From Candidatus Sericytochromatia bacterium (GTDB lineage Bacteria > Cyanobacteriota > Sericytochromatia > UBA7694), in the NCBI GenBank assembly GCA_964229355.1, contig CAXRDE010000005.1:229131-293130 (forward strand): DNA of 64,000 nucleotides, given 5' to 3'. Of this stretch, positions 40,613-64,000 are shown piece by piece. Under the pieces are notes generated by a model. That model had not been told where the DNA came from and ran no database searches. It saw nothing but the letters and a program-made list of their open reading frames with translations. The translations under genes and the position numbers were made by a program. The first letter of the stretch is position 1; each line of letters begins with the position of its first letter.

Positions 40613-41910
40613 GAGTTAAAGCCTCCGGTCAGGTAAATCATGATGCCAGTAATTAAAATATTGGCCAAAGCCACTGGCAACAAAGACTTCCACCCTAAAA
40701 ACATCAGTTGATCGTAACGGAAGCGTGGCAAGGTCCAACGCACCCAAATAAACACAATACACATCAGCATGGTTTTGACAGCAAAAGTACCCACTTGCAT
40801 CAGTGCCGCAAACAAAGGACCGCCCCAGGCCTGAGGAAAAGGAATCAGAAAGGCCAGGCCCAGGGTAAGAAAAGCCCCCAATGCAGCCAGACTCAACACC
40901 ACCGCATAGACCAGTGACTCTTTATCTCGCATGTCGCCATAATACCCATCGTTGCGTTTGAAAGCACGGTAGGCCCAGAGCGCCAGCAGGGCCAGCACGA
41001 CACCTGCTCCGCCAATGACCACTTTGCTTAAGACGGCCGCATTGGCCACCAGCGTTGCCGTATCTAAAAAGGGAATTTGCCAGCCGCCAAAGAAGAGGGT
41101 AATAATCATGGCGGAAGCCACCACCATGGCCACGTACTCCGCCATAAAAAAGGTGCCAAACAGCATGCCGCTGTACTCGGTATGAAAGCCCGCCACCAGC
41201 TCTGATTCGCCTTCGGCCAGGTCAAAGGGGGCGCGGTTGGTTTCAGCAAAGGCACAAATAATAAAAACAATGGCAGCCAGAGGTTGAATAAAAATGCCCC
41301 AGCGCGGTAAAAAGCCAAAGATTAGCTCGCCCTGTTGCTGCACAATATCGTTCAGGTGCACGGTACCAAAAGCCATAATTAAGCCAATCACCGAAAGCCC
41401 TAAAGGCAATTCATAAGAAATCAGCTGGGCGCTGGAACGCACGCCGCCCAGCAGCGAATATTTATTGTTCGAAGCCCAACCTGCCAACACCACACCGTAG
41501 ACCATCAGCGAGGTCATGGCGAAGTACCACAACAAGCCCGCATCAATGTTTAAGGCCTGCATCGAAATACTCCAGCCCGGCAAGTGAATCACATCAGCAA
41601 AGGGCACCACAGGCAGCACGATCAAAGAAACAGCGGCAATAATCACGGGCGCAGCCAAATAGTGAAACATACGCACGTTGCGCGGAATCAATTGCTCTTT
41701 GGAGAGCATTTTAAAGGTGTCGGCAAACAAATGCACCAATCCACCCAAACGAATAAAGCCAATGGCCGCACGGTTGGGACCCGGACGATCCTGAATTAAG
41801 GCGGAAACTTTACGTTCTAACCACACCAATAAAGGCACCAAAGACAGAGGGAACAAAACAAACACAAGGACCTTGACCAGGACCACCAGTACTTCAATCA
41901 ACGAGCTCAT
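40609..41910 (-). CDS. nuoH: NADH-quinone oxidoreductase subunit H.
   Basis: It has the ND1/NuoH conserved N-terminus ERKVSALIQDRPGPNR...LFADTFKMLSKE. Confidence 0.9.
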   Translation of the reverse strand: MSSLIEVLVVLVKVLVFVLFPLSLVPLLVWLERKVSALIQDRPGPNRAAIGFIRLGGLVHLFADTFKMLSKEQLIPRNVRMFHYLAAPVIIAAVSLIVLPVVPFADVIHLPGWSISMQALNIDAGLLWYFAMTSLMVYGVVLAGWASNNKYSLLGGVRSSAQLISYELPLGLSVIGLIMAFGTVHLNDIVQQQGELIFGFLPRWGIFIQPLAAIVFIICAFAETNRAPFDLAEGESELVAGFHTEYSGMLFGTFFMAEYVAMVVASAMIITLFFGGWQIPFLDTATLVANAAVLSKVVIGGAGVVLALLALWAYRAFKRNDGYYGDMRDKESLVYAVVLSLAALGAFLTLGLAFLIPFPQAWGGPLFAALMQVGTFAVKTMLMCIVFIWVRWTLPRFRYDQLMFLGWKSLLPVALANILITGIMIYLTGGFNS

Positions 41911-43505
41911 GCGTTCACCTCCACGGGCGCTTCTTCAGCCACCGGCTCGGGGGGCACCAAAGACAAGCCCGTATCTGGGATCTCATAAAAGGTTAACGCC
42001 GCCAGGCGTTCGACCTTGGTATTCATGAGACTCCAGACGTCTTCGACATCCTGGTACAAAGGCGCGGCGGTCAGCACCGGCGCAAACATGCCCGCAATCA
42101 GTTTCCAGGCAGGACGAGCTGAAGAGAGGGCAAAATAAGCCTGATTGACCTTTTGCAAGCGCTGCTCACCGTTGATATACGTGGCGTCTTGCTCGGCATG
42201 AGCCGTGATGGGCAAGGTGACATCGGCTTCTAAAGCCAGGGTGGTTTGATGCACACCCAAATGAATGACCTGCTTATTCACAAGAAGTTTGCGCAACGCT
42301 TCGCTGTCCGCGTCCAGGCTAATGACCAGTTTCACTTCATCATTCTGCAGTTCAGACTCCAGCACCGCACGGTTTCTCGAGATGTCGAGCAGTTTTAAAC
42401 CGGCGGTATTGGGGGTCTTATCGGCAGTGCGTAAAAAGTCATCCCCTTCTCCCACATGCTCATAATTATGGCTGTACACCGCTTCAGAGCCCACGCCTTG
42501 CAGCATGAGGTGTTTGAGCATAAAGTTATCTTCTAAAGAAGCCGTTGAACTGGCCACCGCCACAATGGCGTTTTTACCGTGGGTTTGCAGGGTGGACTGA
42601 ATCAGCTCTGCGGCAGCCACCACGGCGGCCTCCACGGCACATTCAGCGCCTTTTTTCATGGCAATGTCTAAGCGATTTTCGTGGAGCGCCTTGTAACTCA
42701 GGCGGCCCTCATCACACATCCACCATTCGTTGACCTCAGCATTGTAGCGAGGGCGGTAGCGATAGGTGGTGGCGTTATCAAAATCCAGATAGACATTACA
42801 CCCTTTTGAGCAGCCCGTGCACAAAGAGGTGGTGGTGGATAAAAACCATACCCGCTTTTTAAAGCGAAAGTCTTTACTGGTCAAAGCCCCCACAGGACAA
42901 ATATCGACGACGTTGGCGGAATAAGGGTTATCGAGCTCGCGACCGGGGAAGGTATCAATGCGGCTTTTTTCACCCCGTTGGGTGATCACCAGTTCGTGGG
43001 TGCCGGTCACTTCATCGCAGAAGCGCACACAGCGAGAGCAGAGAATACAGCGCTCCTGATCCAGTTTGACCAGAGGTCCTACATCCACGGCCTTGGCCTT
43101 GTGAACTTTGGGTACCGTCGAACGGTTGGTATAAAGACCGTAGTCCATATAATAGTCTTGCAGTCCGCACTCGCCAGCCTGATCACAGATCGGACAGTCA
43201 ATGGGGTGGTTCAACAGCAAGAACTCCATGACACCCTGGCGCATTTTTTTGACATTGTCATTTTCCACCAGGAACTCCATGCCGTCGCCCACCATGGTAT
43301 TACACGCAATGGTGGCCATGACACCCCGTGGACCCTTTTGTTCCACAAGGCACATACGGCAGTTCCCGGAGACGCTTAAGCCGGGGTGATAGCAATAGTG
43401 CGGAATCGTAATTCCGACACTGGCAGCGGCCTGAATAAGATTTTGGCCTGCTTCAACTTCATATTCAACATCATCTATTTTAATGGTGGGCATGGCTGAA
43501 ATCAA
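41907..43505 (-). CDS. nuoG: NADH-quinone oxidoreductase subunit G (the short 532-aa form).
   Basis: It has an N-terminal 2Fe-2S ferredoxin domain and Fe-S cysteine motifs, and couples to nuoH. Confidence 0.85.
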   Translation of the reverse strand: MISAMPTIKIDDVEYEVEAGQNLIQAAASVGITIPHYCYHPGLSVSGNCRMCLVEQKGPRGVMATIACNTMVGDGMEFLVENDNVKKMRQGVMEFLLLNHPIDCPICDQAGECGLQDYYMDYGLYTNRSTVPKVHKAKAVDVGPLVKLDQERCILCSRCVRFCDEVTGTHELVITQRGEKSRIDTFPGRELDNPYSANVVDICPVGALTSKDFRFKKRVWFLSTTTSLCTGCSKGCNVYLDFDNATTYRYRPRYNAEVNEWWMCDEGRLSYKALHENRLDIAMKKGAECAVEAAVVAAAELIQSTLQTHGKNAIVAVASSTASLEDNFMLKHLMLQGVGSEAVYSHNYEHVGEGDDFLRTADKTPNTAGLKLLDISRNRAVLESELQNDEVKLVISLDADSEALRKLLVNKQVIHLGVHQTTLALEADVTLPITAHAEQDATYINGEQRLQKVNQAYFALSSARPAWKLIAGMFAPVLTAAPLYQDVEDVWSLMNTKVERLAALTFYEIPDTGLSLVPPEPVAEEAPVEVNA

Positions 43506-51687: not shown

Positions 51688-53127
51688 CTATTGAATCGCC
51701 TGGGTTTTGGCGTTTTCAGCCACTTCTGCCGCAGAAGCCTGCAGGGCGCGGGTGGGGTTAATCAGACCATGGCCGTACAACCCGTCGACGCCAATTTCAC
51801 CGAGGTCGGTCGCGGTGTCTTCAATCCGAGCCCGCACTTCGCCGGGCTTGAGGTAGGGGTTTTGGCTCCAGATCATGGCGGCCAGGGCAGAAACCATAGG
51901 GGTTGCCATGGAAGTGCCGTTAAGGGTGGCATAATTGTTGGGCAGTCCCAGTTGGTTGGCACTGACTTCATAGGTGGGGAAGGTGGAGGTGATTTCTACA
52001 CCAGGAGCTACAATGTCGAGCTCTTCGCCACGGTTAGAAAAAGAAGCCACATATTTGTCTTCGTTCACGGCACCCACAGACATAAACTCGCTGGCAGCAG
52101 CAGGAAAGCCAATGGGTCCGCCCGCGTTGCCCGCAGCGGCAATAATCAAAGCGCCCCGTGCTTCGGCATAGCGCGACAGGTAATTGGCCAGGGTGCGCAT
52201 GGTGGAGCCACCCGAAGGAGAACCCAGACTCATATTAATGACTTTGGCACCGTTATTGGCGGCGTAAGCAATACCTTTGGCAATGTTAAACAGGCTGCCG
52301 GAACCTTTGGCATCTAAAACGCGAATGGCCAAAATTTTAACATTGGGGGCCATACCACTAATGCCTTCCTGGTTATTTAAACCGGCGGTAATAATACCGG
52401 CCACATGGGTGCCGTGGCCGTGTTCATCAAGGGGTTCAAGGTCACGGTCTATATAATCGGGGCCTTTAATAATGCGGCCGGCCAAATCAGGGTGGGTATA
52501 GTCAACACCGGTATCTAAAACCGCGACGGTCAAACCGCTTTCGCCCACACCGTAATCGGTCCACACCTGGTTCATGTTTAAAGCAGAGAGGTACCATTGT
52601 TGCTGGGTCAGGGGATCCGCGGCCTGCACTTTGACGGTCTGGTTTTGGGCCTTTGTGCCGCTGGCAGGTAGGGGTTGTGGGGTAACCACCACTTCGTCGT
52701 CATCGCTGCCAAACCACTTTTTAATGCGCTCTTTCAGGGTCATTTGCACTTTAAAATTCACGTTGGGAATGGCAAATTCCACCTGAGGATCTGCGTTGTA
52801 TTGAGAGAGGGCATCTTCGAGCTTGACACCCTGGGGCAAGCGTTGCAACTGGGTGCTGGAGTCGTTAAAAGCATCAAGAACCTGAGCGCCAGAGAGAGTG
52901 CGCTGCGCCTGGGTGGAGAACCCTGCACGGTATTTGACAATCACTTCGTCTTTGATGGTTTCAGCCACGGTGGTTTCGGCCACCGGGGTGTTGCGCTGGG
53001 GCACCAGGCTGGCAAGGGTTTGTGTAGGTTGTTGAGAGGCCACCGGAGCCAAGGCCTGACCGCTACAGGCGGTCATCAAAAGGGCAGAAACCACGGGGGT
53101 GAGGTGACGAAGAATCTGTTTTTTCAT
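51688..53127 (-). CDS. Subtilisin-like serine protease (S8) lipoprotein with an I9 propeptide.
   Basis: The catalytic-triad motifs are VLDTGVDYTHPDL (Asp), HGTHVAGI (His) and GTSMATPMV (Ser). The lipobox is LMTAC. Confidence 0.9.
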   Translation of the reverse strand: MKKQILRHLTPVVSALLMTACSGQALAPVASQQPTQTLASLVPQRNTPVAETTVAETIKDEVIVKYRAGFSTQAQRTLSGAQVLDAFNDSSTQLQRLPQGVKLEDALSQYNADPQVEFAIPNVNFKVQMTLKERIKKWFGSDDDEVVVTPQPLPASGTKAQNQTVKVQAADPLTQQQWYLSALNMNQVWTDYGVGESGLTVAVLDTGVDYTHPDLAGRIIKGPDYIDRDLEPLDEHGHGTHVAGIITAGLNNQEGISGMAPNVKILAIRVLDAKGSGSLFNIAKGIAYAANNGAKVINMSLGSPSGGSTMRTLANYLSRYAEARGALIIAAAGNAGGPIGFPAAASEFMSVGAVNEDKYVASFSNRGEELDIVAPGVEITSTFPTYEVSANQLGLPNNYATLNGTSMATPMVSALAAMIWSQNPYLKPGEVRARIEDTATDLGEIGVDGLYGHGLINPTRALQASAAEVAENAKTQAIQ

Positions 53128-53589
53128 AAGGTATGCGCTCTCTCTACTACAAACTGTATCTTAGTTATACCCCATTTTGGCTTCAAAAATCTTAAGGGCA
53201 GTTTATTATCGGCTCAATTTTTGGATAAAAAGAACAGCTTCAATGATTAAAGCCCATCGCCTTACAAAAAAGAGGTCCAAAAAAGCAGGTTTTGGAGCTT
53301 AAATTTTGGTTAAGCACACATTCAAACATCCATACCTTTGAACACTTATTACATCCACAAGAAAAACCGACAAACACTATCTTACAGCTTGTTTCTACAA
53401 TTTCACCGTGCCATAAAACACTGAAATACCGCAAGATTTTTTAATGTTTGTTTATTATTTTAAGCACAAATTAACCACAAATTTACAAAACCACATATTT
53501 TATCGTCTTTTTGGACGACAGACAAAAAAAGCAAGGGGTGTTATGGTCTCTGTAATAAGCAAAGACAACGCTTGTGTTGCTTTTTTGTA

Positions 53590-56241
53590 ATGGAAGCTTT
53601 CGCTGTGATTCGACATGTTTCAAAATTATCCTGGTTCAGTTATGTGCTCAGCGCTTTGTTATTGATCTCGTGTAGCACGACACCGACTCATCCGCCAACG
53701 CAAGCCTCAGTCATGTCTGCGCCGCCTGTTACAATACAGCAAGCCCAGAATACACCACTCCCCCCAAAAGAGAAACTCACGCTCAGTCAGCCTATGACAG
53801 GAGTAATTGGTGTACCTTTGTCTGATTTTCAGCTTCAGGGTGAAGATAAGATAGATTTTGAACTCCCTTTGAGCCTTCCTATTTCGCGCTCCGGCATCAA
53901 AGAGGGCACAGGTATGCTGTACTTAAGTGGAGGCAACGAAAATTGGAATGCAGCAGGTTTGGTAACTGCCCGGTTTTCTATTGTACCTCAGACCAATGGA
54001 ACCACACTCATGCGTTTAGAAGCAGGTAAATCGAGTGGTCCTTATACCTACTATGTCAGCGCTTCAGGCATTGTCAATGGCATCCCTGAACTCAAAGAGG
54101 GAAGCAGTATTTCAGCCCCTTTAAATTTTTCTGAATCTAAATACTCCATCAGTCACGATAATACAGGGGGCTCTAGAAACTATGTGTTTGAATCAGGTGT
54201 TATTCAAGCCAGTGTCAACGGTGAACAAATCACCGTAGGTATTTCAGGAATGACCTCCAGCAGAATGACCTGGAAGGAATGCTACTCCTGGGGAACGGGT
54301 AGCGCTTGTTATGATCGCTCCGATAGCACCAAATCACTACTGGGTGGCAACATTCAGTTTATTTCACCCATTGCTAAAAAAGAATTAAGCTTAGAACTCA
54401 AAGCTGACCAGGACGGTATTGGCAACACCTTTGCCAGCGAGTCCGGTGATCTGGCCTTACAGTCTGTTTTGGGCGTTGATACCTTTGGCTCACAAGAGCC
54501 CTGGACCCTGCGCATTAAAAAAGATGGGGCCACGGGCACAGCCACAGGTGATAACTGCTGGGATAGCTACACCTCAGGCGGTACGGGTAAAAAGGACAAT
54601 GCCTACACCTTAGATGCTTCTAAACTGGGCAATGGCACTTATACCGTTGAAGCGTATTACAGCGCCTACCCCGATGAAAAGGCAACGGTGACGGTGGAGG
54701 TCAAGAATAAAACCCAGGTCACCGTGATCGAAAACCCGAGCTTCTACCCTGTTCAGCAAAACACCAAACTCGAAGTCTGGGCTCCTGCGTGCGAAAGCGC
54801 CTGGGATTTAAAATTCACAGGCGCGGTCAATGATCCTGACAACGCCGAAGAACCTGTCCAGTGCAGCTTTTCTCGCACCGGCACTACCGCCAACCCCATG
54901 CAACCGGCCTCGGTGTTATGGGATGGGGTCTGCGAAGACAAGCTCGCCCGTGATGATTGGAATGTGGAGCTGAGCACTGAGTCAGACGGTGATGCGACTT
55001 CGGTGACGGCCCTGTGTTGTGGCAGCGTAACATTGGAAGCGGATCAAGAGGCCATTTCACCGGGCACTGTAGACGGAAACTTTGATAGCGTCAATTTTAA
55101 GGTGCGCTCTAGCACTGGTAAACCCTGGGAGCTGAGCATTCGGGGCAATACCCCTGGCCCCTTGGATGAGCGCGGCCTGCCCACCGCAGGGCCTGAATGT
55201 ACGTGGTCAGCGTCTGGCTCGGAATCAGAAAAAACCATCAACTGGAAGGGAACCTGCGATGGGGGTGCAATGGTGGATGGGCAATATACAGCCACCCTGC
55301 GCTCTGAAGATCAAGAAGACAGTGTGCCCATTATGATAGATAACACAGCACCTGTGTTTGGCGAACTCCTGGCGATTCCACGTTTTGATGGCCGCACGGA
55401 CTACTCGATTACCGTGCAGGATCCTCTGGTGAATGGTGTAGCCTCAGGCCTTAAAGACCTGGCCTCGCTACAATTGCAAGCCAGTGTAGGCGGCGAAAAC
55501 ACCCAGTTGGCTGACCTGCGTATGGATGCGGGTGACTTTTCGATTACCAGCACCGGCGGGCAAACCTATACCTTGCGATTTACCTATGCAGGGACCAATG
55601 CCCTTTTGTTACGCGGTTTGGATTTATTGGCGAATGTGGGGAGCAATGCAAAGACTCCAAAATTGCTTACAAAAAGATGTAAGAAACAAGGCATTACCCT
55701 TTTAAATGCCTATGATTACTATCGAGTGCGTCAAGGGGAAAATAGAGCGATAACTCTTTATTTCTTAGTCGACAGTCCAGGAGATGGATACAATCGTCCC
55801 TACCCTCCCCACAAACAGTTTGAACAAAGTATTAAAGCTTACTCCAGCTTATCGGGAGCAAAAAACCTTATTCCTGCTTCTAACTTTTCTTTTGAGAACT
55901 TAAAAGCAGATCGGGTAGGAATAGCAATGTGGATGTATGGTTATCCAACTGCTGGTGGTGGAGTAACACCACATCTTTTAGAAGGGGTGAGTCCAGGTAA
56001 ATTTTTAGACTCAGGCTTACCTTTTAGACAAATACGTTCTAATGGCCAGTGGGTGTCAGGACCTTATTTAGCTAAGGGGCAGTTGCTACTTATGATTTCC
56101 CCAGACCTCAATTTAGTGTCTTATACAAACCAAATGCTAACCATTGAGGTGCCCAACTCACAAAACAATAATAAAACGGTGTTTAATTTAAATTTAAAAA
56201 AAGGAGTAAGCAATACATGGTCAGAAATCACATGTCTATAA
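53590..56241 (+). CDS. Large surface lipoprotein with tandem Cys-containing Ig-like domains and an AT-rich C-terminal extension of about 200 aa; candidate polymorphic-toxin delivery protein. The ORF is open from 53572.
   Basis: It has a signal peptide and the lipobox LLISC. The Ig-like domain carrying PAC...C...W.G.CED..RD.W recurs at 57033 onwards. Codon usage and GC drop at about 55610. Confidence 0.65.
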   Translation: MEAFAVIRHVSKLSWFSYVLSALLLISCSTTPTHPPTQASVMSAPPVTIQQAQNTPLPPKEKLTLSQPMTGVIGVPLSDFQLQGEDKIDFELPLSLPISRSGIKEGTGMLYLSGGNENWNAAGLVTARFSIVPQTNGTTLMRLEAGKSSGPYTYYVSASGIVNGIPELKEGSSISAPLNFSESKYSISHDNTGGSRNYVFESGVIQASVNGEQITVGISGMTSSRMTWKECYSWGTGSACYDRSDSTKSLLGGNIQFISPIAKKELSLELKADQDGIGNTFASESGDLALQSVLGVDTFGSQEPWTLRIKKDGATGTATGDNCWDSYTSGGTGKKDNAYTLDASKLGNGTYTVEAYYSAYPDEKATVTVEVKNKTQVTVIENPSFYPVQQNTKLEVWAPACESAWDLKFTGAVNDPDNAEEPVQCSFSRTGTTANPMQPASVLWDGVCEDKLARDDWNVELSTESDGDATSVTALCCGSVTLEADQEAISPGTVDGNFDSVNFKVRSSTGKPWELSIRGNTPGPLDERGLPTAGPECTWSASGSESEKTINWKGTCDGGAMVDGQYTATLRSEDQEDSVPIMIDNTAPVFGELLAIPRFDGRTDYSITVQDPLVNGVASGLKDLASLQLQASVGGENTQLADLRMDAGDFSITSTGGQTYTLRFTYAGTNALLLRGLDLLANVGSNAKTPKLLTKRCKKQGITLLNAYDYYRVRQGENRAITLYFLVDSPGDGYNRPYPPHKQFEQSIKAYSSLSGAKNLIPASNFSFENLKADRVGIAMWMYGYPTAGGGVTPHLLEGVSPGKFLDSGLPFRQIRSNGQWVSGPYLAKGQLLLMISPDLNLVSYTNQMLTIEVPNSQNNNKTVFNLNLKKGVSNTWSEITCL
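54625..54710 (+). repeat. Copy 1 of an ~86-bp direct repeat, about 94% identical to 57033..57118.
   Basis: The segment ctgggcaatggcac(t/c)tataccgttgaagc(g/c)tattacagcgcctacccc(g/a)atgaaaa(g/a)gc(a/c)acggtgacggtggaggtcaagaa encodes LGNGTYTVEAYYSAYP(D/N)EKATVTVEVKNK. Confidence 0.85.
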
Positions 56242-57032
56242 AAATAAGTGTAAGTTGTGCTTTGGCAATGTTTTTAGTATTAACTACTGCTTTCGCAGAG
56301 AGTATCATCAATGATTCGCTCCAGTCTTGGTTTTATAGCGGAAGAGATGTTTCAATGAGCAGAGATCAGTATTTTGAATCTGTTGTTGGTGGGACTGTGG
56401 AAGCAGCTTCTCAAAAAGATTTTCATTATAGTCTAACCAATTTTCCTGTTCTTCTTGGTAACTTCAGCACCTTGGATATAGAAAAATTTATCGTTACCAG
56501 TGGCTTTCCTGAAAATTTTGAACTAGAGATAGAGTCTGACTTAAAAAGTGTGGATAACAATCTGTTTGAAGAAATTCAAATCGATGGCAAACAAGTACTC
56601 AAAGCAAGTGTACTTTACTACAAACAATCAAACTTAACCCCCCATGCTGCAGGCTATTATTTTCATACCTCAAACCAGAGCTATGCCAATTTTCTATTTC
56701 AGTTTGCGAATGTCTACCACACCAAAGACACGCCTTACTACCAGGAGATCAGACAACGGGCCAAACCCACTCATAATATCCTCCCCAATCAAAAGGGCAA
56801 TAAACCTATTATCAAGGGCGAAAACATCACCTTTTACCACCTCGACCGCAACGATGGCTACATTGAAACCTATGGCTTTCGTAAGCCCAAAGGCAACGAG
56901 CTGAAAGGCGTGGAACAAATTCTTGTGTTGCAGGCCATTTACCCGGCGGCGCAAATGGCGGAACTGGCGGGGCCGTTAACAGAGTTGTTTGTGAAAGAAG
57001 TGCAACAGCATCAGGCGGTGTGGGGCTACTAG
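56217..57032 (+). CDS. Secreted hypothetical protein, AT-rich; candidate cognate immunity protein. It overlaps the upstream gene by 25 bp.
   Basis: It has the signal peptide MSIKISVSCALAMFLVLTTAFA. Its C-terminus ...EVQQHQAVWGY* recurs as a degraded copy at about 60226. Confidence 0.5.
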   Translation: MVRNHMSIKISVSCALAMFLVLTTAFAESIINDSLQSWFYSGRDVSMSRDQYFESVVGGTVEAASQKDFHYSLTNFPVLLGNFSTLDIEKFIVTSGFPENFELEIESDLKSVDNNLFEEIQIDGKQVLKASVLYYKQSNLTPHAAGYYFHTSNQSYANFLFQFANVYHTKDTPYYQEIRQRAKPTHNILPNQKGNKPIIKGENITFYHLDRNDGYIETYGFRKPKGNELKGVEQILVLQAIYPAAQMAELAGPLTELFVKEVQQHQAVWGY

Positions 57033-57118
57033 CTGGGCAATGGCACCTATACCGTTGAAGCCTATTACAGCGCCTACCCCAATGAAAAAGCCACGGTGAC
57101 GGTGGAGGTCAAGAACAA
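57033..57118 (+). repeat. Copy 2 of the ~86-bp direct repeat. It begins on the nucleotide after the TAG stop of 56217..57032.
   Basis: See copy 1. The same reading frame is open from 57033. Confidence 0.85.
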
Positions 57119-59069
57119 AGCAGAGTTGAAAGTGATTGGCAACGCTGCGTTTACACCGCCTGGGGAAGAAGTGACCTTACAGGCGACTTTTCCGGCCTGT
57201 TCAGAAGGCCATGTAACCTTAGAAGGCGCAACGCAAAGCCTATTTGAAGAGGCTGAGCCTGAGACGTGCAGTTTACGCATCTTAGAAACACCCGGTGTAG
57301 GCGCACAGCAGACCCTTAACTTTGTTTGGAATGGCATGTGTGAAGACGTAATCAGTCGTGATCTTTGGACTGCAGATTTATGGGTGGATGAGGAGATTAA
57401 AGACTCCCAAACCTTAGATCTTTTGGGTGATTCACCATCCTGTGAAGAAACGCCTTTGACGCCCGAAGACCTCAATGAAATGCTTTCGTTGATCAATCAG
57501 CTTTCGTTGTTTTCAAACTCGGGCTTTGGTATTCAGTCTGTGGATGTGGCTTCAGGAGATGCCTTAAAAACCTTTGTACAACAAAAATCCAAAATGGAAA
57601 AGGCCTATACTCAACTGGCCGAATTGGGATACCCAGTCGCACAAATTCAAGAAACCAGCACCCAAGACGGTTTGCCTGCTGCAAGCTCTTTCCCCCAGGC
57701 CAAGTCAATAGAACGTCAACTCAATGCTTATTTTGAAGCCAAAGCTCAGCGCGATATTGCCAGGGCTCAGTACAAAAGCTTTTTAAACACTCTTGAGACT
57801 GAAATAGTAGCTTTAAAAACGTACTCTCAGTCTTTCTTTGGAATCCCGTTTGAAGATTACGCTGGTGAGCAAAGAAATCCCTCAATTTTGTTTTATAAAG
57901 ACCTGGTGGACGACGCCGTTGCAGATACACAGCTCTTTTTGTCTGAAAAAACAGTCCCCGATTTATTGCTTGCGATGCAAACCTACACCAATTTGTTGAG
58001 CATTTTTTATGAGTTGTCTCACCAGTATCTTGAGGGTGAAGTGAGTGCACTAGAGGGAGTCGATGCATACGAATATGAGAAGTTAAATCCCGAAAAGTTA
58101 AATACACCTCACCAGTTGATCAAATATGTTCAACGCACATTGCAAAACCTCAATGAAAAAATCAACAGCCGTCATCAGGCCCTAGACGAAGAGCTAGGTC
58201 AGTTATTCGCAGAAGCTGAGGAAATTTCCAATACCTTGGATCAGCTTGAGGCAGAAGCTGAAGCCATTGATCAAAGCGATGCTGAGCTCTTGGCAGAATG
58301 GGAAGCGTTTCTAAACGAAGAAGCGCAAGAAGAGAGCGATGGTGGTTTTTCGGTCCAGTCAGACATTGAGAACCCTATTCCTGATGCGGGACTACCCAAT
58401 GGGTATTACGGCCGTGGGAACACACCCGGCTCCACCACAAACTACGCACGTCAGTATTATAGTAAATCTGGTAAGCCGGTACGCCCTGAAAAAATACAGC
58501 GTGTTCAGCTGAATCAATCCCGCTCTACTAACATGGTAAATTATCGCCAGGGCGTGTTAGCAAACCAAAGAGCAAATCTCAGTCGTGTCAACACACAAAT
58601 TCGCCGGTACGAAAGAGGCATTGAACAAGCTAAAAAAACTGGAAATAGCCAGTTGCAACAGCGACTTGAGTTGGCTAAACGACGCGCTGAAGGGCAACGT
58701 AAAAAGTTTGAAGATAATGTTCGGCGCAATGAGGATCTTTTACAAAAAGCAAAAACGGAACAAGGAAGAGCTCGTAAAAGTTCCAATCAATCAGACAGAA
58801 AAATACAATGTACAAAGGTGCCAGCAGCTTATTATCGAAATGTGCCGAGACCATTGAGAGGTGAAGACGGCTATGTAAATTTGGACAAATTTACTCAAAA
58901 ACAAAACATAGGGGCAGAAACAAGATTTGTTGACCCAAAATCAGGATACTACTTGGGTAAAGATCGAGCGGGTGGAAATAGTCATAATGGAAGTAAGTGG
59001 AAGCTTAAGTCTCCTTCGGGAAAGCGCTTGGGAACACTAACTCCAGAAGGGAAATATCTTAGAGAGTAG
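57096..59069 (+). CDS. Orphan-module-like ORF (GTG at 57096 in the track; frame open from 57033 with no upstream start or signal peptide). It has an Ig-like domain, a coiled-coil and a basic C-terminal domain.
   Basis: It shares a frame with 56217..57032, separated only by a TAG. The N-terminal 33 aa are nearly identical to residues ~352-384 of the upstream lipoprotein. The C-terminus is ...GKDRAGGNSHNGSKWKLKSPSGKRLG. Confidence 0.5.
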   Translation: MTVEVKNKAELKVIGNAAFTPPGEEVTLQATFPACSEGHVTLEGATQSLFEEAEPETCSLRILETPGVGAQQTLNFVWNGMCEDVISRDLWTADLWVDEEIKDSQTLDLLGDSPSCEETPLTPEDLNEMLSLINQLSLFSNSGFGIQSVDVASGDALKTFVQQKSKMEKAYTQLAELGYPVAQIQETSTQDGLPAASSFPQAKSIERQLNAYFEAKAQRDIARAQYKSFLNTLETEIVALKTYSQSFFGIPFEDYAGEQRNPSILFYKDLVDDAVADTQLFLSEKTVPDLLLAMQTYTNLLSIFYELSHQYLEGEVSALEGVDAYEYEKLNPEKLNTPHQLIKYVQRTLQNLNEKINSRHQALDEELGQLFAEAEEISNTLDQLEAEAEAIDQSDAELLAEWEAFLNEEAQEESDGGFSVQSDIENPIPDAGLPNGYYGRGNTPGSTTNYARQYYSKSGKPVRPEKIQRVQLNQSRSTNMVNYRQGVLANQRANLSRVNTQIRRYERGIEQAKKTGNSQLQQRLELAKRRAEGQRKKFEDNVRRNEDLLQKAKTEQGRARKSSNQSDRKIQCTKVPAAYYRNVPRPLRGEDGYVNLDKFTQKQNIGAETRFVDPKSGYYLGKDRAGGNSHNGSKWKLKSPSGKRLGTLTPEGKYLRE

Positions 59070-59075
59070 TTATGT

Positions 59076-59558
59076 ATGTGGCCAGACAAACATTTTTTAG
59101 CGAGTATAACTAGTTTAGGTATTGACGATTTTTTGGAAACTTTGCAAAAGCAACGTGTTTCCCAACTGTTTTTTAGTTATCATCCAAGAATTCTTACCGA
59201 GGAGGAGTCACAAAATACCAAAATGTTTTATGGGGAGTTTTTAGGTACCTCAGAGCTATCTTTATACTATGTTTTTGAGCACAAGATGATAAAAGCACTT
59301 GGTACTTTACATTATCAATCTCCAATTTTCTGGTTTGAACAAGAACGCCTTCAGCTTGAAACTGAGAACTCGTTGAGACAACATATACAACTTGGATTAC
59401 GAGATGAGGCATTGGGGCTATTCTTTGTACCTGACAAAAAAATTTTAATGGTAACGGGCTATGACTTAACATGGATGGCATACTTTTTTTCCCCTGAAAA
59501 CAATAATTTTTTCACGGACATCCTTAAAAATAATGCTATTAACTATTGGCATGTTTAG
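59076..59558 (+). CDS. Small hypothetical cytoplasmic protein, AT-rich; candidate immunity protein.
   Basis: It is a 160-aa ORF starting 7 bp after the stop of 57096..59069. Confidence 0.45.
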   Translation: MWPDKHFLASITSLGIDDFLETLQKQRVSQLFFSYHPRILTEEESQNTKMFYGEFLGTSELSLYYVFEHKMIKALGTLHYQSPIFWFEQERLQLETENSLRQHIQLGLRDEALGLFFVPDKKILMVTGYDLTWMAYFFSPENNNFFTDILKNNAINYWHV

Positions 59559-59747
59559 GTCTTGTGAACAGAATCATTTGAGCAAATATTGAGCGACCAT
59601 TAAAAGCACCACAAAAACAATGATGGAAAATGTCTTTGGGTTTCTTTAGACTCTTAGATTTATGAAACCCGAAGAACAAACTTTTTGGGGTTCTGAATGT
59701 CGCCCAACACCGATTAACATAAATATAAAAGAGCTAAAGTAAAAACA

Positions 59748-60185
59748 ATGGATGACTTATATTCTGAAATCATTTATGAAAAAGATGAAATTGAGGTGTT
59801 CTGCGGCTATTTTTTAACGGGCAACAACTTTGACCTGAACACACTTACCAACCTTTCTGGGGTTGAACCCACATACAGTTATAAAAAAGGCGAACAAACA
59901 AAGGGAGGAGTCCGTTATCAAGAGGACTGTTGGGGAGTGAGTTCACGTGGGCAAATTACTTCAAATAAACTCAGTGATCATCTTGAGTATGTACTAAGCC
60001 GAGCATTTATCGTACAAGAGAAAGTAATGGACTATATTGAGTCAGAATCGATTACCGTCACTTTTGAGGTAATTTTTGAGGGTGATGTCTCTGGAACAGG
60101 TCCGATTATTCCCAATTTTTGGCTCTTAAAAATAGCGCAGCTAAAACACGTCGATTTATGTTTTGAAATTTATAATTACGGTTAA
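59748..60185 (+). CDS. Small hypothetical cytoplasmic protein, AT-rich.
   Basis: It is a 145-aa ORF. Confidence 0.4.
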   Translation: MDDLYSEIIYEKDEIEVFCGYFLTGNNFDLNTLTNLSGVEPTYSYKKGEQTKGGVRYQEDCWGVSSRGQITSNKLSDHLEYVLSRAFIVQEKVMDYIESESITVTFEVIFEGDVSGTGPIIPNFWLLKIAQLKHVDLCFEIYNYG

Positions 60186-60267
60186 AAGCTTTTCTCATGT
60201 TAAACGTCAATTATTTATTCAGGAGGTGCAACAGCACAAGGCACTCTGGGGATACTCGCCCCTTTGA
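60145..60267 (+). pseudogene. Remnant of the 3' end of a paralog of the 56217..57032 gene. It encodes ...LFIQEVQQHKALWGYSPL*, compared with ...LFVKEVQQHQAVWGY* in that gene.
   Basis: The open stretch is about 40 codons with no start codon. The DNA is about 80% identical to the 57001-57032 region. Confidence 0.45.
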
Positions 60268-60656
60268 TTGGGCGTGTAAAATTAGCGGTTATGTTAGAAG
60301 AAGCGGAAGCATTAATTCAATCCAGGGCTGAAATCCATAAAGGAGATAGTGCAGATTACCTTACCATAGAGTCAGCTTTGGCTGTCCTTGAACTTTTTAT
60401 CGCTGATGGTGAAATCGGCGTGCTAGGCATCGACTGTTTTTACATCACTCCAGAGAGGACACTCGCACTTTTAGATATGACGTTGGATCTTTCACGAGAT
60501 TTCCCACGGAAGAGCAAAGATTACATGGATCTAAGCAAAACGGAGTGGTTTAAACTTCTTAATCTTTCAGCACAAAACTTTTTACGTTTTCTAAAGGATA
60601 ATGATGATATTTCAAAAAAAGATTTTTATGTGGAAATAATTTTCACTGACGCCTAA
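60264..60656 (+). CDS. Small hypothetical cytoplasmic protein, AT-rich.
   Basis: It is a 130-aa ORF in the track, with a TTG start. The likely ATG lies at about 60291. Confidence 0.4.
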   Translation: MIGRVKLAVMLEEAEALIQSRAEIHKGDSADYLTIESALAVLELFIADGEIGVLGIDCFYITPERTLALLDMTLDLSRDFPRKSKDYMDLSKTEWFKLLNLSAQNFLRFLKDNDDISKKDFYVEIIFTDA

Positions 60657-60715
60657 ACCTCAATCATCGTCAAACCGCGAAACCAACGCCATACCCATAA
60701 ATTAAGGTAAATCAT

Positions 60716-61228
60716 ATGATTATTGCACTCGATTTAAAACAAGTCTCTCACCACAAGATAGAGCAAGAGTTGGATGAGAAAGGGCTTATACTTACTTATC
60801 TTGCACTGAGCCTTGGTAATGATTATTGCATTATAGACATTGTTTCATCAACGGATTATTCTGATGTATTAGAGAATTTATGGGTAGAGAGTGAGCGTGA
60901 AGGATATTCTAATGCACTCTCACGCATCCAAACTGCCTTACAATACCCGCCATCGATAGCATTGGCTTTTTGCAGGGCAGAGGTCACACCATCTTCAAAT
61001 CTAAGCTTATCTCGATTTGTACAAGCGTTTGCAAAAGATGTCACCGAGCAACTCGATAATGTAGAAAAAGATGGTTTTCATTTACGGAAAGTGATTCAGA
61101 GTGATGACTTTGAACTTCGTTTACATGAGTATTACTGGGTTAAAGTTGTGAATCATGAGAAATGTCTATGGGTATCTCTAGACTATCAACTCTATGAAAC
61201 CTCTCGACACAACTTTCTTGGACTATAG
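60716..61228 (+). CDS. Small hypothetical cytoplasmic protein, AT-rich.
   Basis: It is a 170-aa ORF. Confidence 0.4.
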   Translation: MIIALDLKQVSHHKIEQELDEKGLILTYLALSLGNDYCIIDIVSSTDYSDVLENLWVESEREGYSNALSRIQTALQYPPSIALAFCRAEVTPSSNLSLSRFVQAFAKDVTEQLDNVEKDGFHLRKVIQSDDFELRLHEYYWVKVVNHEKCLWVSLDYQLYETSRHNFLGL

Positions 61229-61301
61229 AGGCAGCAAGATGAATATGAAAGGTTTTTCCAGAGGCAAACATGTTTCTTGAACGCTTAGGAGCACGAAAAA
61301 A

Positions 61302-61676
61302 TTGACAGAAGCAGAAATTAGGCAAAAGATAGAAGCAGGGCTCATGACGGTAACTATTGAAGATTTTTATGCTTATGCAGAAGCTCTCAATGTGGATGTA
61401 AATCAGGGATTTGACAATTTGGCACTTTTGTATGCCAGTGCGTTTATGAGAGGAGAAATTTCCTATGAAGATGCAGACGACATTTTAAATACAATCTGGT
61501 GGTTTATGTGTCGTTCTAAGGCAGAAGGTTTTGCTAACCTTGCCTATTCCATCTACGAAGCTTTTGACGCAGGGGAGTTTTCTCGCAAAGAAGGTGAAGA
61601 TCCCGTCCAAACCTATACCATTCCCATGTTACAAGAGATATTTAACGCTTTGGACTTTACTCACGGATCACAATGA
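61302..61676 (+). CDS. Small hypothetical acidic protein, AT-rich.
   Basis: It is a 124-aa ORF. Confidence 0.4.
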   Translation: MTEAEIRQKIEAGLMTVTIEDFYAYAEALNVDVNQGFDNLALLYASAFMRGEISYEDADDILNTIWWFMCRSKAEGFANLAYSIYEAFDAGEFSRKEGEDPVQTYTIPMLQEIFNALDFTHGSQ

Positions 61677-62070
61677 GGATCTCTTATATATTCTGCTCTT
61701 AGTGGCTTCTCTTCTAACTTTTTCACATGTACAATGTCAGGCTCACTTTCGGTCACCACTTCAACAAAGGTCATACCTGTGATAATTCGCCATGCATAAA
61801 TGGCGTTTCCCATCCGGCTATTTCCACCTCATCTTTTTTCATACTTCTTTATCCTTCAAAAGATATACTGCGTGAAATGCAGCGGCCCATGCAATAAGGT
61901 ATACAAGAGAGACAGGTAGCCGTAAGTCGTCGGCTATGCTGTCATTTAAAATAGCTTAACATCCAAACACGATGAATCCTGAAAAAAAGATTTTGGTGCA
62001 GCATGACAGAAGAACAACTCAAAGATAAATTTTGCAATGCCCAAGGCACAAGCCGAGTTCGGAGGTAGAC

Positions 62071-62523
62071 ATGCCCCAATACGTTTACCGTCTTTATCAC
62101 TGGCGCGATGAGGACAATGATGAAACCTACAAAGAGATTGGCCATTATTCAAGCCGAGAAAAGGCCGCTCAGGTAATTGAAAAGTACAAAACCCTCCCAG
62201 GTTTTTATGCTTACCCGGATTGCTTCACGATCGATAAAGTGGAGATCGATCGTGACTTCTGGACAGAAGGGTTTAACGTTTATCTGGTACAGGTTCCTCT
62301 CAAAGGCAAAAGTGGCTATGCGACTGTGCGTGCACGGGGGGAGTTTATGATGGCTTTTCAGGAACTCTGGTATGGCTTGTTTGAGGTGATCAGCAACCAC
62401 AAAGAAGAAGACTTGCTCTATCCCCTGGACGCGGTGGTCAAAGCCACAGATACAAAACCGCTACAGGCCATTGAAATGATGTCTGAAGACTTTGAGAGCT
62501 TTTTAAACAAGTACAATCTTTAG
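62071..62523 (+). CDS. Hypothetical protein. The start was chosen at the Met that has a GGAGG Shine-Dalgarno; the ORF is open from 62032.
   Basis: The sequence reads ggaggtagacATG. It is about 150 aa. Confidence 0.45.
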   Translation: MPQYVYRLYHWRDEDNDETYKEIGHYSSREKAAQVIEKYKTLPGFYAYPDCFTIDKVEIDRDFWTEGFNVYLVQVPLKGKSGYATVRARGEFMMAFQELWYGLFEVISNHKEEDLLYPLDAVVKATDTKPLQAIEMMSEDFESFLNKYNL

Positions 62524-62586
62524 GTGCCTCTCCGCCGAGCGGCCTTAAACCGGTGCTATAATTGGCGAAAAACATGGAGCCTTGCC

Positions 62587-62934
62587 GTGAACCCTAGCCC
62601 TTCTGACATCACCCTCAAAGACGCCCAGGCGCAGGTAGATACCTGGATCAAAACCCTGGGGGTTCGCTATTTTTCGGAGTTGACCAATTTGGCCCAGCTC
62701 GTCGAAGAAGTGGGCGAACTGGCGCGGATTTTATCGCGTACCTATGGCGAACAGAGCTTTAAGGCGGGCGAAAGCGGCGAGCACCTGGCAGATGAAATGG
62801 CGGACGTGCTCTTTGTGCTGATCTGCCTGGCCAATCAGACAGGTGTGGATCTCACCGCAGCGCTCCAGGCCAATCTGGCTAAAAAAACAAAACGGGATGC
62901 CACCCGTCATCTGGAGAACCCCAAACTGCAATGA
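62587..62934 (+). CDS. MazG-like nucleotide pyrophosphohydrolase domain protein (a GTG start is proposed; the ORF is open from 62524).
   Basis: The MazG motifs are EEVGELARIL and EHLADEMADVLFVLICLAN. Confidence 0.6.
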   Translation: MNPSPSDITLKDAQAQVDTWIKTLGVRYFSELTNLAQLVEEVGELARILSRTYGEQSFKAGESGEHLADEMADVLFVLICLANQTGVDLTAALQANLAKKTKRDATRHLENPKLQ

Positions 62935-63806
62935 GCCCCTCTCTTTTTTCTTCACTGGTCTACCGTTTGAGCTTAAGCTGTCTGAGTTTAGGCTTACTTA
63001 GCGCCTGCCCCGCAAACCAAAGCGCCGACAATGAAACCACGCCGCCTAAAGCCCAACAGGCCGCGGGCGATCTGGTGGAAAGCTTCTGGAAAGCCCCTGC
63101 CGCTTATCCCACCGACGCCACCCGGGCTGAACAGGTCAAATATGGCGAGGCCCTGGTACAAAAGACCCACGCCTACCTGAGTCCTGCGGCACCGGATCCC
63201 GCCCTGCGGGTGGCGGGCAACCACCTGGCCTGCAAAAACTGCCACCTCGACAACGGCAAGGCCGCTCATGCCGTGGGTTTTATTGGTATTGATCGGCGCT
63301 ATCCCGCGTATTATGCGCCACAAGATCGTGAAGTCACCCTGGCGGAGCGGATTGAGGCCTGCTTTCAGGGCAGTCTTAATGGCCAAAAACCACTGCCCGC
63401 CAAAGAACGCGAGGCCCTGACCGCCTACCTCACCTGGCTGGGCGAAGATGTGCCCATGACTGCCCCACTGCCGCTGCCGGAGTCGGGATTACCTGAGCTG
63501 CAAACCGACAGCACCACCGGCAACGGCGACGTGGAGGCGGGCAAACCGCTGTATGAATACCACTGTGCCGCCTGCCACGGTAAAACGGGCCTGGGACTGG
63601 CCGCAGACCCCAAGGATTTATCCAAAGGCTATACCTTCCCACCGCTGTGGGGGCCTGACAGCCACAGTCAGCGTTCAAGCCTGGCCAACACGCAGACTGC
63701 CGCCCGCTACATTCACAAGAACATGCCCCTGGGTCGTGCGGTCTTGACCACTTCTCAGGCCTTAGATATTGCTGCCTATATCAACGCCCAGGAACGCCCG
63801 CAATGA
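62931..63806 (+). CDS. Diheme c-type cytochrome lipoprotein (TsdA / thiosulfate dehydrogenase-like).
   Basis: It has two CXXCH motifs, CKNCH and CAACH, and the lipobox LLSAC. Confidence 0.6.
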   Translation: MSPSLFSSLVYRLSLSCLSLGLLSACPANQSADNETTPPKAQQAAGDLVESFWKAPAAYPTDATRAEQVKYGEALVQKTHAYLSPAAPDPALRVAGNHLACKNCHLDNGKAAHAVGFIGIDRRYPAYYAPQDREVTLAERIEACFQGSLNGQKPLPAKEREALTAYLTWLGEDVPMTAPLPLPESGLPELQTDSTTGNGDVEAGKPLYEYHCAACHGKTGLGLAADPKDLSKGYTFPPLWGPDSHSQRSSLANTQTAARYIHKNMPLGRAVLTTSQALDIAAYINAQERPQ

Positions 63807-64000
63807 GCCCGGAACAGGCCAATTTTTTAGGTTTGCTGGCGGGCACCCTCACCACCATTTCTTTTGTGCCGCAGGTGTGGCACACCTGGAAAACCCGCTC
63901 CGCCAAAGACCTCTCGCTGGGCATGCTGCTGATTTTCACCCTGGGTATTGCCCTCTGGCTCATTTATGGCCTTTGGATGCAGGCCGCGCCCCTGATCGCC
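63802..64000 (+). CDS. Partial CDS for a PQ-loop / SemiSWEET-like small membrane protein (its 3' end lies outside the window).
   Basis: The sequence MSPEQANFLGLLAGTLTTISFVPQVWHTWKTRSAKDLS has the PQ motif. Its ATG overlaps the cytochrome stop (ATGA). Confidence 0.5.

Follow-up and report, generated by a model that had tools for sequence, protein, structure and literature searches.

Can a lipoprotein act as the carrier of exchangeable toxins in the Sericytochromatia, an uncultured, non-photosynthetic sister class of the oxygenic cyanobacteria? The question is raised by a locus on contig CAXRDE010000005.1 of a Candidatus Sericytochromatia bacterium (assembly GCA_964229355.1), of which we analysed a stretch of 64,000 nucleotides (nt), hereafter the window; positions are those of this stretch. 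In it an intact gene for a large lipoprotein (gene 1) is followed by an overlapping open reading frame (ORF) for a secreted protein (ORF2), by a long ORF without a signal peptide (ORF3) and by a row of small ORFs (ORF4–ORF9). A previous inspection of the DNA letters, here called the sequence-only reading, had proposed a polymorphic toxin-immunity locus, and every element on which that proposal was built was found at or near its place in our ORF map, composition profile and repeat search. Comparison with related loci supports the proposal: the C-termini of the relatives vary, the small gene behind each of them is specific to the tip, and two ORFs of the window are homologous to such partner genes. 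From sequence comparison we put the probability at about 85% that we are dealing with a polymorphic toxin-immunity locus on a lipoprotein carrier, to which an orphan toxin module and orphan immunity genes also belong. Of the features by which Zhang et al. (2012; PMC3482391) recognise such systems, three are seen here, namely a shared N-terminus with varied C-termini, a downstream gene that co-varies with them, and orphan cassettes with a homology patch. Profile searches with the C-termini, a check named in the sequence-only reading, identified toxin families above the cutoff in relatives (Ntox33 and Colicin_E5); the tip of ORF3 falls below the Ntox21 cutoff, and the C-terminal domain of gene 1 (CT1) matches no profile. 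The toxicity of the tips and their neutralisation by the immunity proteins are predictions from these similarities.

The argument begins with the carrier. Gene 1 has a type II signal peptide and a lipobox (LLIS-C34; the Cys34 codon is 53671–53673), and by comparison with its relative P0001 its true start is likely ATG 53590 or GTG 53605 (P-numbers, P0001–P0009, denote protein relatives, and L-numbers, L001–L004 and L082–L084, denote the contigs or loci used for comparison). Only five relatives of gene 1 were found among 5.8 billion clustered proteins. Pattern scans for the N-terminal region and the scaffold in metagenome contigs of the Joint Genome Institute, together with one scan of the GTDB species genomes, gave no further members, so our estimate of the family's diversity comes from the protein search. 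A lipobox is present in all four full-length relatives, the variants across these and the window protein being LLISC, LVASC and VMTAC; P0003 as called starts downstream of its signal peptide. Gene 1 and the five relatives share residues ~60–380 of gene 1 and then split into at least four unrelated C-terminal regions, i.e. the relatives keep the lipoprotein region and end in different tips, as the sequence-only reading had expected. Sliding identity reveals that gene 1 is itself a mosaic: residues 61–270 are 80–93% identical to P0001 and residues 271–375 are 83–96% identical to P0004 and P0005, which indicates recombination within the carrier family. After residue 376 identity is 40% or less in every comparison. 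The conservation peak common to all homologues, residues 346–375, is exactly the segment that is duplicated at 57033, and the conserved junction motif of the family, LGNGTYTVEAYYSAYPDEKATV, is followed by divergence. The switch within gene 1 had earlier been placed at about 55610. There is indeed a compositional break at this point, the GC content falling from 0.553 (54736–55600) to 0.387 (55640–56241), and the last part of the gene is AT-rich as described; the border between conserved and variable sequence in the family, however, lies at ~54711–54735 (residue ~380).

The AlphaFold model of gene 1 covers residues 60–475, was built from an alignment of six sequences and leaves residues 35–59 outside. 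Its first 39 residues (~60–98) form a low-confidence linker (predicted local distance difference test, pLDDT, below 50), residues ~99–267 (nt ~53866–54372) are modelled with confidence as an all-beta, beta-barrel-like domain (pLDDT 80–93), and two immunoglobulin (Ig)/FN3-like domains follow. The beta-barrel-like domain of the model is a resemblance at the level of topology only. The description of gene 1 as a lipoprotein of tandem Ig-like domains was right as to the lipoprotein and the Ig/FN3-like domains but not for residues ~99–267, which model as beta-barrel-like. When the multi-domain N-terminal model was compared with PDB by Foldseek, all matches were multi-Ig structures of low template modelling score, and the N-terminal region has no match in Pfam or NCBIfam. 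The carrier family appears to be previously undescribed, in agreement with the remark that it was not recognised as a described toxin family, but lipoprotein-borne polymorphic toxins as such are already known, namely SitA and the lipobox-led polymorphic effectors APD1/APD2 of Amoebophilus.

Two of the relatives end in recognised toxin domains. The tip of P0002 is Ntox33 in Pfam (E = 4.2e-11, 43.6 bits against a cutoff of 28.4) and that of P0003 is Colicin_E5 (E = 4.9e-19, 68.8 bits against a cutoff of 25). In both proteins the shared region is followed by one Ig-like domain, a helical scaffold of ~450 amino acids (aa) and then the toxin tip. P0001 and P0005 differ from these two: they carry a proline-rich linker, another helical region and a tip of ~170 aa without family assignment. 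The gene directly downstream co-varies with the tip across the family loci, each tip being paired with a different gene, and the small variable downstream genes of the earlier proposal are found here. More specifically, the Ntox33 tip of P0002 in L001 is followed by a gene for a 145-aa DUF4279 protein, the ColE5 tip of P0003 in L002 by one for a 134-aa protein similar to ORF6, the P0005 tip in L003 by an ankyrin-repeat protein, the Ntox21-like tip of P0007 in L083 by a 163-aa protein similar to ORF4, and the CT1 homologue in L082 by an overlapping ORF2-like gene. The gene after the Colicin_E5-type tip (L002 3077–3481; window 60291–60656) has no Pfam match at E ≤ 0.01 and appears to represent a new immunity family for ColE5-like domains. 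The gene next to P0004 (L004 84–3026) encodes another lipoprotein (leader LLLASSC), which is not immunity-like. In L001 (6836–7352) and L003 (321–584), but not in the window, the family toxin gene is closely preceded by a YoeB/YefM (PhdYeFM) toxin-antitoxin pair or an antitoxin gene; the toxin locus therefore occupies different neighbourhoods in different genomes.

The duplicated segment, or patch, connects gene 1 with ORF3. Positions 57033–57119 repeat 54625–54711 over 87 nt at 93% identity (blastn E = 3e-32), which excludes chance by far; the sequence-only reading had described an 86-bp near-identical copy of an internal segment. The repeat lengthens to 111 nt at 86% and continues at the protein level with 47% identity over 117 aa. 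Both copies sit on codon boundaries, and copy 2 starts, in frame, at the first base past the stop codon of ORF2. The frame of ORF3 is open from this base onwards, GTG 57096 is the earliest codon at which it could start, and no signal peptide is present, just as had been said of the second module. In its DNA sequence ORF3 shares 81% identity with the P0002 gene (57033–58753) and likewise 81% with the P0003 gene (57033–58447). The scaffolds of the three proteins converge on a conserved cysteine, and the tips of 85–110 aa beyond it are unrelated. When a deletion between the two patch copies is simulated, an in-frame lipoprotein of 1018 aa is obtained that matches P0002 with 71% identity across 904 aa, and the ORF3 orphan could for this reason be reactivated. 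The displaced toxin-immunity cassette with a homology patch that had been suspected here is therefore borne out by the way ORF3 opens, with a copy of the gene 1 junction. Window positions 54009–64000, both repeat copies included, recur with 100% identity in a separate Logan assembly (L084, run SRR28144605), so the arrangement of the locus is not specific to one assembly.

The tip of ORF3 is termed Ntox21-like because its single homologue, P0007 (67% identity), has Ntox21 as its sole Pfam match (E = 5e-4, 20.8 bits, below the cutoff of 25) and the window tip matches the same profile weakly; the assignment is not established. Ntox21 is the family of the CdiA-CT of Enterobacter cloacae, a predicted RNase of the BECR fold (PMC3482391). 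In L083 the P0007 tip lies downstream of an ORF3-like scaffold (48% identity), from which it is separated by a frameshift, in an assembly of 2.4x coverage. The out-of-frame tip of that locus (1557–2009) is either an assembly error or a truly inactivated toxin whose immunity gene was kept. The 163-aa gene that follows it is 34% identical to ORF4 over the full length (E = 2.5e-31). An ORF3-type tip and an ORF4-type gene hence recur as a pair, and it is this pairing that makes ORF4 the candidate cognate immunity gene. Dibasic sites precede both tips of the window (KR-C in gene 1, RK..QC in ORF3).

CT1 and ORF2 form a different kind of pair. CT1 is bracketed by conserved cysteines (KRC ... CL-stop): the KRC cysteine is kept in all three CT1-type sequences that cover it, and the last cysteine (CL/CR-stop) and an SPDLN motif in four of four. 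Only three relatives were found among 1.84 billion representative proteins, namely P0006 (63% identical over CT1 and 74% over its full 325 aa), P0008 (36% identical over gene 1 residues 588–889) and P0009, a fragment of 49 aa. The first 25 nt of ORF2 lie within the 3' end of gene 1, and the Sec-type signal peptide of ORF2, MSIKISVSCALAMFLVLTTAFA/ES, was read by eye without a predictor; an overlapping secreted ORF had been noted at this place before. In L082 the CT1 homologue is a 5'-truncated module starting just after a stop codon, and the ORF2-like start with its signal peptide overlaps the end of this homologue in the same manner as in the window. On the same short contig, a 169-aa protein with a weak pentapeptide-repeat-like match (749–1258, E = 0.024) and an S41 peptidase fragment lie upstream of the truncated module, and the contig shows no full-length gene for a carrier. 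That CT1 and ORF2 may be toxin and immunity protein is suggested by their position and composition, their coupling, their joint inheritance and the signal peptide of the partner. The pair is new. We rate the chance that it is active, with a toxin acting outside the cytoplasm and a periplasmic immunity protein, as slightly below even.

Lectin-like (B-lectin/MMBL) bacteriocins have tandem B-lectin domains with QxDxNxVxY motifs. CT1 was considered as such a bacteriocin and the idea was rejected: the sole match was GAFP-1 at E = 0.53, which is chance level, there is one SPDLN motif only, and the Q, V and Y positions of the motif are not conserved in the four sequences.

Downstream of ORF3 the five small ORFs described before (ORF4–ORF8) are present; they have no signal peptides and their GC content is 0.35–0.40, as is that of the 5' part of ORF2. 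For comparison, GC is 0.503 over window positions 1–53000 and 0.586 downstream of 62524. ORF5 shares 83% identity with its counterpart in L001, the gene that immediately follows the one for the Ntox33 toxin P0002. Its family, DUF4279, is known from the literature as the immunity family FdL-Imm5, paired with Ntox33 (PMC9424270), and in Salmonella DUF4279 adjoins an Rhs-Ntox33 effector (PMC13304343). For ORF6 the counterpart is the L002 gene immediately behind that for the ColE5-tipped toxin P0003, at 70% identity. The cognate Ntox33 and ColE5 toxins are absent from the window, Ntox33 being represented only by its last 17 codons directly upstream of ORF5 (GSECRPTPININIKELK-stop, compared with GSEPQPLHINIKELK-stop in P0002); positions 59709–60334, which span the junction of this remnant and ORF5, are 87% identical to L001 10739–11367. 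Two further gene ends lie in the array. One is ORF7-like: positions 59619–59669 match 61151–61201 at 78% in a self-blast, and the translation KCLWVSLDS-stop-IYETRRTNFLGF matches the end of ORF7. The other is ORF2-like and recurs in L001 at 11238–11285. Their presence points to repeated cassette turnover. The decayed gene fragment that had been placed at 61677–62031 was only partly confirmed, since the interval has no ORF above 56 aa but gene decay was not borne out there; the decayed pieces are instead those at 59619–59742 and ~60197–60262.

When the small ORFs were checked against profiles, ORF5 was assigned to DUF4279 but ORF7 and ORF8 matched no family. ORF7 has no Pfam or NCBIfam family and no PDB or plasmid match, and it is a plausible orphan immunity gene; for ORF8 this role is possible. 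The plasmid relatives of ORF8 (distant) and of ORF9 are hypothetical proteins, with no toxin context in the three regions inspected. ORF9 has an intermediate GC content of 0.463 and ends exactly at the start of a gene for a MazG-type nucleotide pyrophosphohydrolase at 62524 (the pair spans 62032–62934). PDB searches with ORF9 gave nothing significant, and its family, DUF7336, has no mention in the literature. ORF9 may close the island as its last immunity-type gene, or it may instead belong to a native operon.

Several observations weigh against a toxin-immunity locus. CT1 has no match in Pfam, NCBIfam or PDB by sequence and profile searches, and its AF2 model is unusable (pLDDT 46.6, two-sequence alignment); ORF2 has no family match in Pfam or NCBIfam and no match in PDB. 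The similarity of the ORF3 tip to Pfam Ntox21 is sub-threshold (E = 0.09, 13.6 bits, below the cutoff of 25), and PDB sequence and profile searches with this tip gave nothing significant. No link to any toxin has been demonstrated for ORF7, ORF8 and ORF9. P0004 carries extra domains, stops after an Ig-like domain and lacks any toxin tip, so members of the family need not be toxins. Finally, tip diversity is counted over ~7 loci, several of which are short metagenomic contigs. It is possible, though we doubt it, that the locus is defensive only. Gene 1 would then be an adhesin or structural lipoprotein, CT1 a binding module, ORF2 its secreted partner and ORF3 a dead remnant, and the immunity archive would be the working function. 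Such a role would agree with the lack of similarity of CT1 and ORF2 to any toxin or immunity family, and with P0004, which belongs to the same sub-type, has no tip and is followed by a lipoprotein gene; the conserved terminal cysteines and beta-rich content of CT1 would suit an extracellular binding domain, and ORF3 has neither a signal peptide nor an obvious start. On the other hand, CT1 sits where the relatives carry toxins and shares the AT-rich composition of the cassettes, its overlap with ORF2 is a translationally coupled layout like that of toxin-immunity pairs, and the two are also found together as a truncated orphan-style module in L082. Long-term decay of ORF3 is argued against by its 678 open codons, its intact tip and its intact partner gene.

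The junction between ORF2 and ORF3 and the AT-rich composition each suggest a further explanation. ORF2 and ORF3 are in the same frame with only the TAG at 57030–57032 between them, and ORF2 would provide the signal peptide that ORF3 is missing, as if a single Sec-secreted toxin gene had been split by an in-frame TAG through pseudogenisation, read-through or a sequencing error. We find this very improbable. Homology to gene 1 and to the full-length relatives starts exactly one base past the stop, which marks 57033 as a recombination junction. The WGY ending of ORF2 recurs in the L001 remnant, where the stop follows at once, and in the ORF5–ORF6 spacer, where three more codons precede the stop; because of these two remnants, WGY-stop is probably the native end of ORF2. 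The sequence is identical in the independent assembly L084, and a shared frame is expected by chance in one case out of three, so the common frame is probably coincidence. We give next to no weight to the idea that the AT-rich region is an unrelated remnant of a prophage, insertion sequence or integrative element whose small ORFs have no connection with gene 1, since ORF4, ORF5 and ORF6 each match the gene directly downstream of a family toxin in other loci. The GC content is low compared with the flanks, and the differing genomic neighbourhoods of the window, L001 and L082 suggest mobility. However, neither the ORFs nor the Pfam results brought an integrase, transposase or phage gene to notice, though no search was aimed at these, and the repeat search found no inverted repeats.

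If the region is a polymorphic toxin-immunity locus, the simplest account of the patch duplication at the ORF2 stop, as read from the sequence, is the following. A cassette consisting of the patch, extra Ig domains, the AT-rich CT1 and ORF2 would have arrived and recombined through the patch, so that it now separates the resident N-terminal region from the scaffold/toxin module that belonged to it. This scaffold with its tip, and the immunity gene behind it, would have been pushed downstream to become ORF3 and ORF4. With the incoming cassette in between, these would be a promoterless, signal-less orphan that opens with its own patch copy. Promoter and terminator scans of the region gave results at chance level only. 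Behind ORF3 and ORF4 lies an archive of candidate immunity genes that have lost their toxins (Ntox33 in the case of ORF5, a ColE5-type toxin in that of ORF6), together with gene-end remnants and probably ORF7–ORF9. One type of downstream part consists of a long helical scaffold, a small nuclease-type toxin (Ntox33, Colicin E5 or Ntox21-like) and its own putative cytoplasmic immunity gene, and CT1 may be a new envelope-acting toxin with the secreted ORF2 as its immunity protein. The Sec pathway would export the carrier, which would then be lipidated and presented at the outer membrane, either on it or within it. Through contact, vesicles or an exchange of membrane the tip could reach related cells nearby and kill those that have no matching immunity. 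Orphan immunity genes would guard against the toxins of neighbours. RecA-type recombination between the patch copies might remove CT1/ORF2 and restore a full-length, in-frame, P0002-like toxin, i.e. act as a toxin switch. Our confidence in any specific delivery route is low. We can only tentatively suggest a lineage-specific one, in which the lipid anchor, linker, small beta-barrel-like domain and Ig stalk would present exchangeable toxins without TraAB or the type V, VI and VII secretion systems (T5SS, T6SS, T7SS), with switching by patch recombination and with CT1/ORF2 as a new envelope-acting pair; taken as a whole this is doubtful.

Features of the locus in the window, with strand and the basis of each assignment
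Feature	Position	Strand	Basis or remarks
S8 subtilase lipoprotein	51688–53127	−	Fervidolysin-type prodomain and Peptidase_S8, lipobox LLMTAC; divergent neighbour of gene 1
Gene 1, intact 889-aa lipoprotein	53572–56241	+	ORF call; signal peptide, lipobox, beta-barrel-like and Ig/FN3-like domains, CT1
Junction patch copy 1 (LGNGTYTVEAYYSAYPDEKATVTVEVKNK)	54625–54735	+	direct repeat; best-conserved segment of the family, members diverge after it
CT1, AT-rich ~187-aa C-terminal domain of gene 1, candidate toxin	55678–56241	+	GC 0.387; from Cys703
ORF2, 271 aa, candidate periplasmic immunity/partner protein of CT1	56217–57032	+	ORF call; Sec signal peptide
ORF3, putative displaced 5'-truncated toxin module	57033–59069	+	DNA identity to the P0002 and P0003 genes; scaffold alignment
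ORF3, patch copy 2	57033–57143	+	followed by one Ig-like domain and a ~450-aa helical scaffold
ORF3, conserved Cys	58809–58811	+	end of scaffold
ORF3, 85-aa Ntox21-like tip	58812–59066	+	
ORF4, 160-aa cytoplasmic protein, candidate cognate immunity of the ORF3 tip	59076–59558	+	pairing in L083
Two decayed remnants	59619–59742	+	ORF7-like 3' end (~59619–59690); last 17 codons and stop of an Ntox33 gene (59689–59742)
ORF5, putative orphan immunity gene, DUF4279 family (FdL-Imm5), cognate to Ntox33	59748–60185	+	Pfam DUF4279, 6.7e-12
ORF2-like 3' end remnant (..LFIQEVQQHKALWGY)	~60197–60262	+	between ORF5 and ORF6
ORF6, orphan immunity candidate for a Colicin-E5-type tip	60264–60656	+	start likely ATG 60291
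ORF7, 170-aa AT-rich cytoplasmic ORF	60716–61228	+	decayed second copy of its 3' end at ~59619–59690
ORF8, 124-aa AT-rich cytoplasmic ORF	61302–61676	+	no family match (Pfam, NCBIfam), no PDB match
ORF9, DUF7336 protein, 3' edge of the island	62032–62523	+	Pfam DUF7336, 1.5e-9; called from 62071 in L084

Outside the locus, the window gives some information about its host. The NuoG encoded at 41907–43505 (− strand) shares 83% identity with its counterpart in a Candidatus Sericytochromatia metagenome-assembled genome, and the best 14 genome matches of NuoG are all Sericytochromatia, Blackallbacteria among them. A secretin gene lies at 33003–34601, and a type IV pilus/type II secretion ATPase (T2SSE, 18955–21270) is fused to N-terminal response-regulator receiver and MshEN domains. 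The secretin and pilus ATPase genes indicate a diderm envelope. The contig of the separate assembly, L084, begins at window position 54009, i.e. it breaks within the N-terminal domain of gene 1; a paralogue in the same genome could be the cause (compare P0001, 80–93% identical over residues 61–270).

Polymorphic toxin systems shape kin discrimination and competition among bacteria. To our knowledge, nearly all that is known of them comes from Proteobacteria, Firmicutes, Bacteroidota and myxobacteria. Our results suggest that the same evolutionary logic is now seen in Sericytochromatia, and both the carrier family and the lineage would be new for polymorphic toxins. Among the matches listed for literature on Sericytochromatia with the word toxin there were only papers on cyanotoxins and ecology. 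SitA, which relies on the exchange of outer membrane between myxobacteria, is as far as we know the only lipoprotein toxin route established by experiment; a further lipoprotein carrier, apparently unrelated to it, raises the question how such toxins exit one outer membrane and enter another cell. The locus offers candidate toxin and immunity sets, i.e. CT1 with ORF2, the Ntox21-like tip with ORF4, and an apparently novel family of immunity proteins against ColE5-type domains. It is also a very clear natural example of cassette displacement with a duplicated in-frame junction.

How does the locus compare with known systems? With nuclease colicins and with surface lipoproteins that have an eight-stranded barrel (TbpB, NHBA, hemophilin) there is similarity of fold or topology only, at 2–13% identity, and there is no lysis gene or plasmid context here. 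The S8-dependent polymorphic toxin systems (S8-PTS) of Gram-positive bacteria consist of a Sec signal, a BetaH domain, a toxin and an S8 peptidase (PMC9424270). They resemble our locus in Sec-dependent export, in an overlapping repertoire (Ntox33 with DUF4279/FdL-Imm5, and Ntox21-like) and in dibasic sites before the tip, and an S8 peptidase lipoprotein gene divergently adjoins gene 1 in the window. However, the 7.7 kb that precede the L001 relative contain no S8 gene, and the S8 peptidase of the window has a prodomain, unlike the dedicated S8-PTS peptidases. The host here is diderm, and no BetaH domain was recognised, though no direct BetaH search was made; the N-terminal region is modelled as all-beta, whereas BetaH is a seven-stranded sheet wrapped round a C-terminal helix.

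In CdiA and Rhs proteins a conserved junction motif precedes the variable tip (VENN and PxxxxDPxGL, respectively), and arrays of orphan immunity genes are found behind them. Orphan CdiA-CT and Rhs-CT modules are displaced tip/immunity pairs that retain a piece of the upstream conserved sequence, and recombination can reactivate them. The likeness of our locus to CdiA-CT/CdiI and Rhs-CT/RhsI therefore lies in the junction motif, the patch-bearing orphans and the orphan immunity arrays, and in shared toxin domains (Ntox21 in CdiA-CT, Ntox33 on Rhs). It does not extend to the carrier: Pfam and NCBIfam find no two-partner secretion (TPS)/filamentous haemagglutinin (FHA) or YD/RHS repeats in gene 1, ORF3 or the relatives, there is no CdiB, T6SS or PAAR context, and export here is predicted to proceed via Sec and lipidation. 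The variable region also begins far upstream of the toxin, so that 500–850 aa are exchanged.

SitA/SitI of Myxococcus are lipoprotein polymorphic toxins delivered by TraAB outer membrane exchange (PMC5562445, PMC8546572). Their homologues have been reported only in traAB-carrying myxobacteria, whereas the host here belongs to the Sericytochromatia. The carrier here is much larger, with a beta-barrel-like domain, Ig/FN3 domains and a 450-aa helical scaffold, and there are orphan modules with a duplicated patch. Likened by architecture and not by sequence, SitA/SitI is nevertheless the closest functional analogue: it combines a lipobox, a family-specific N-terminal escort region, interchangeable nuclease-type toxins and a downstream cytoplasmic immunity gene, and it is tied to horizontally acquired DNA, as is the case here.

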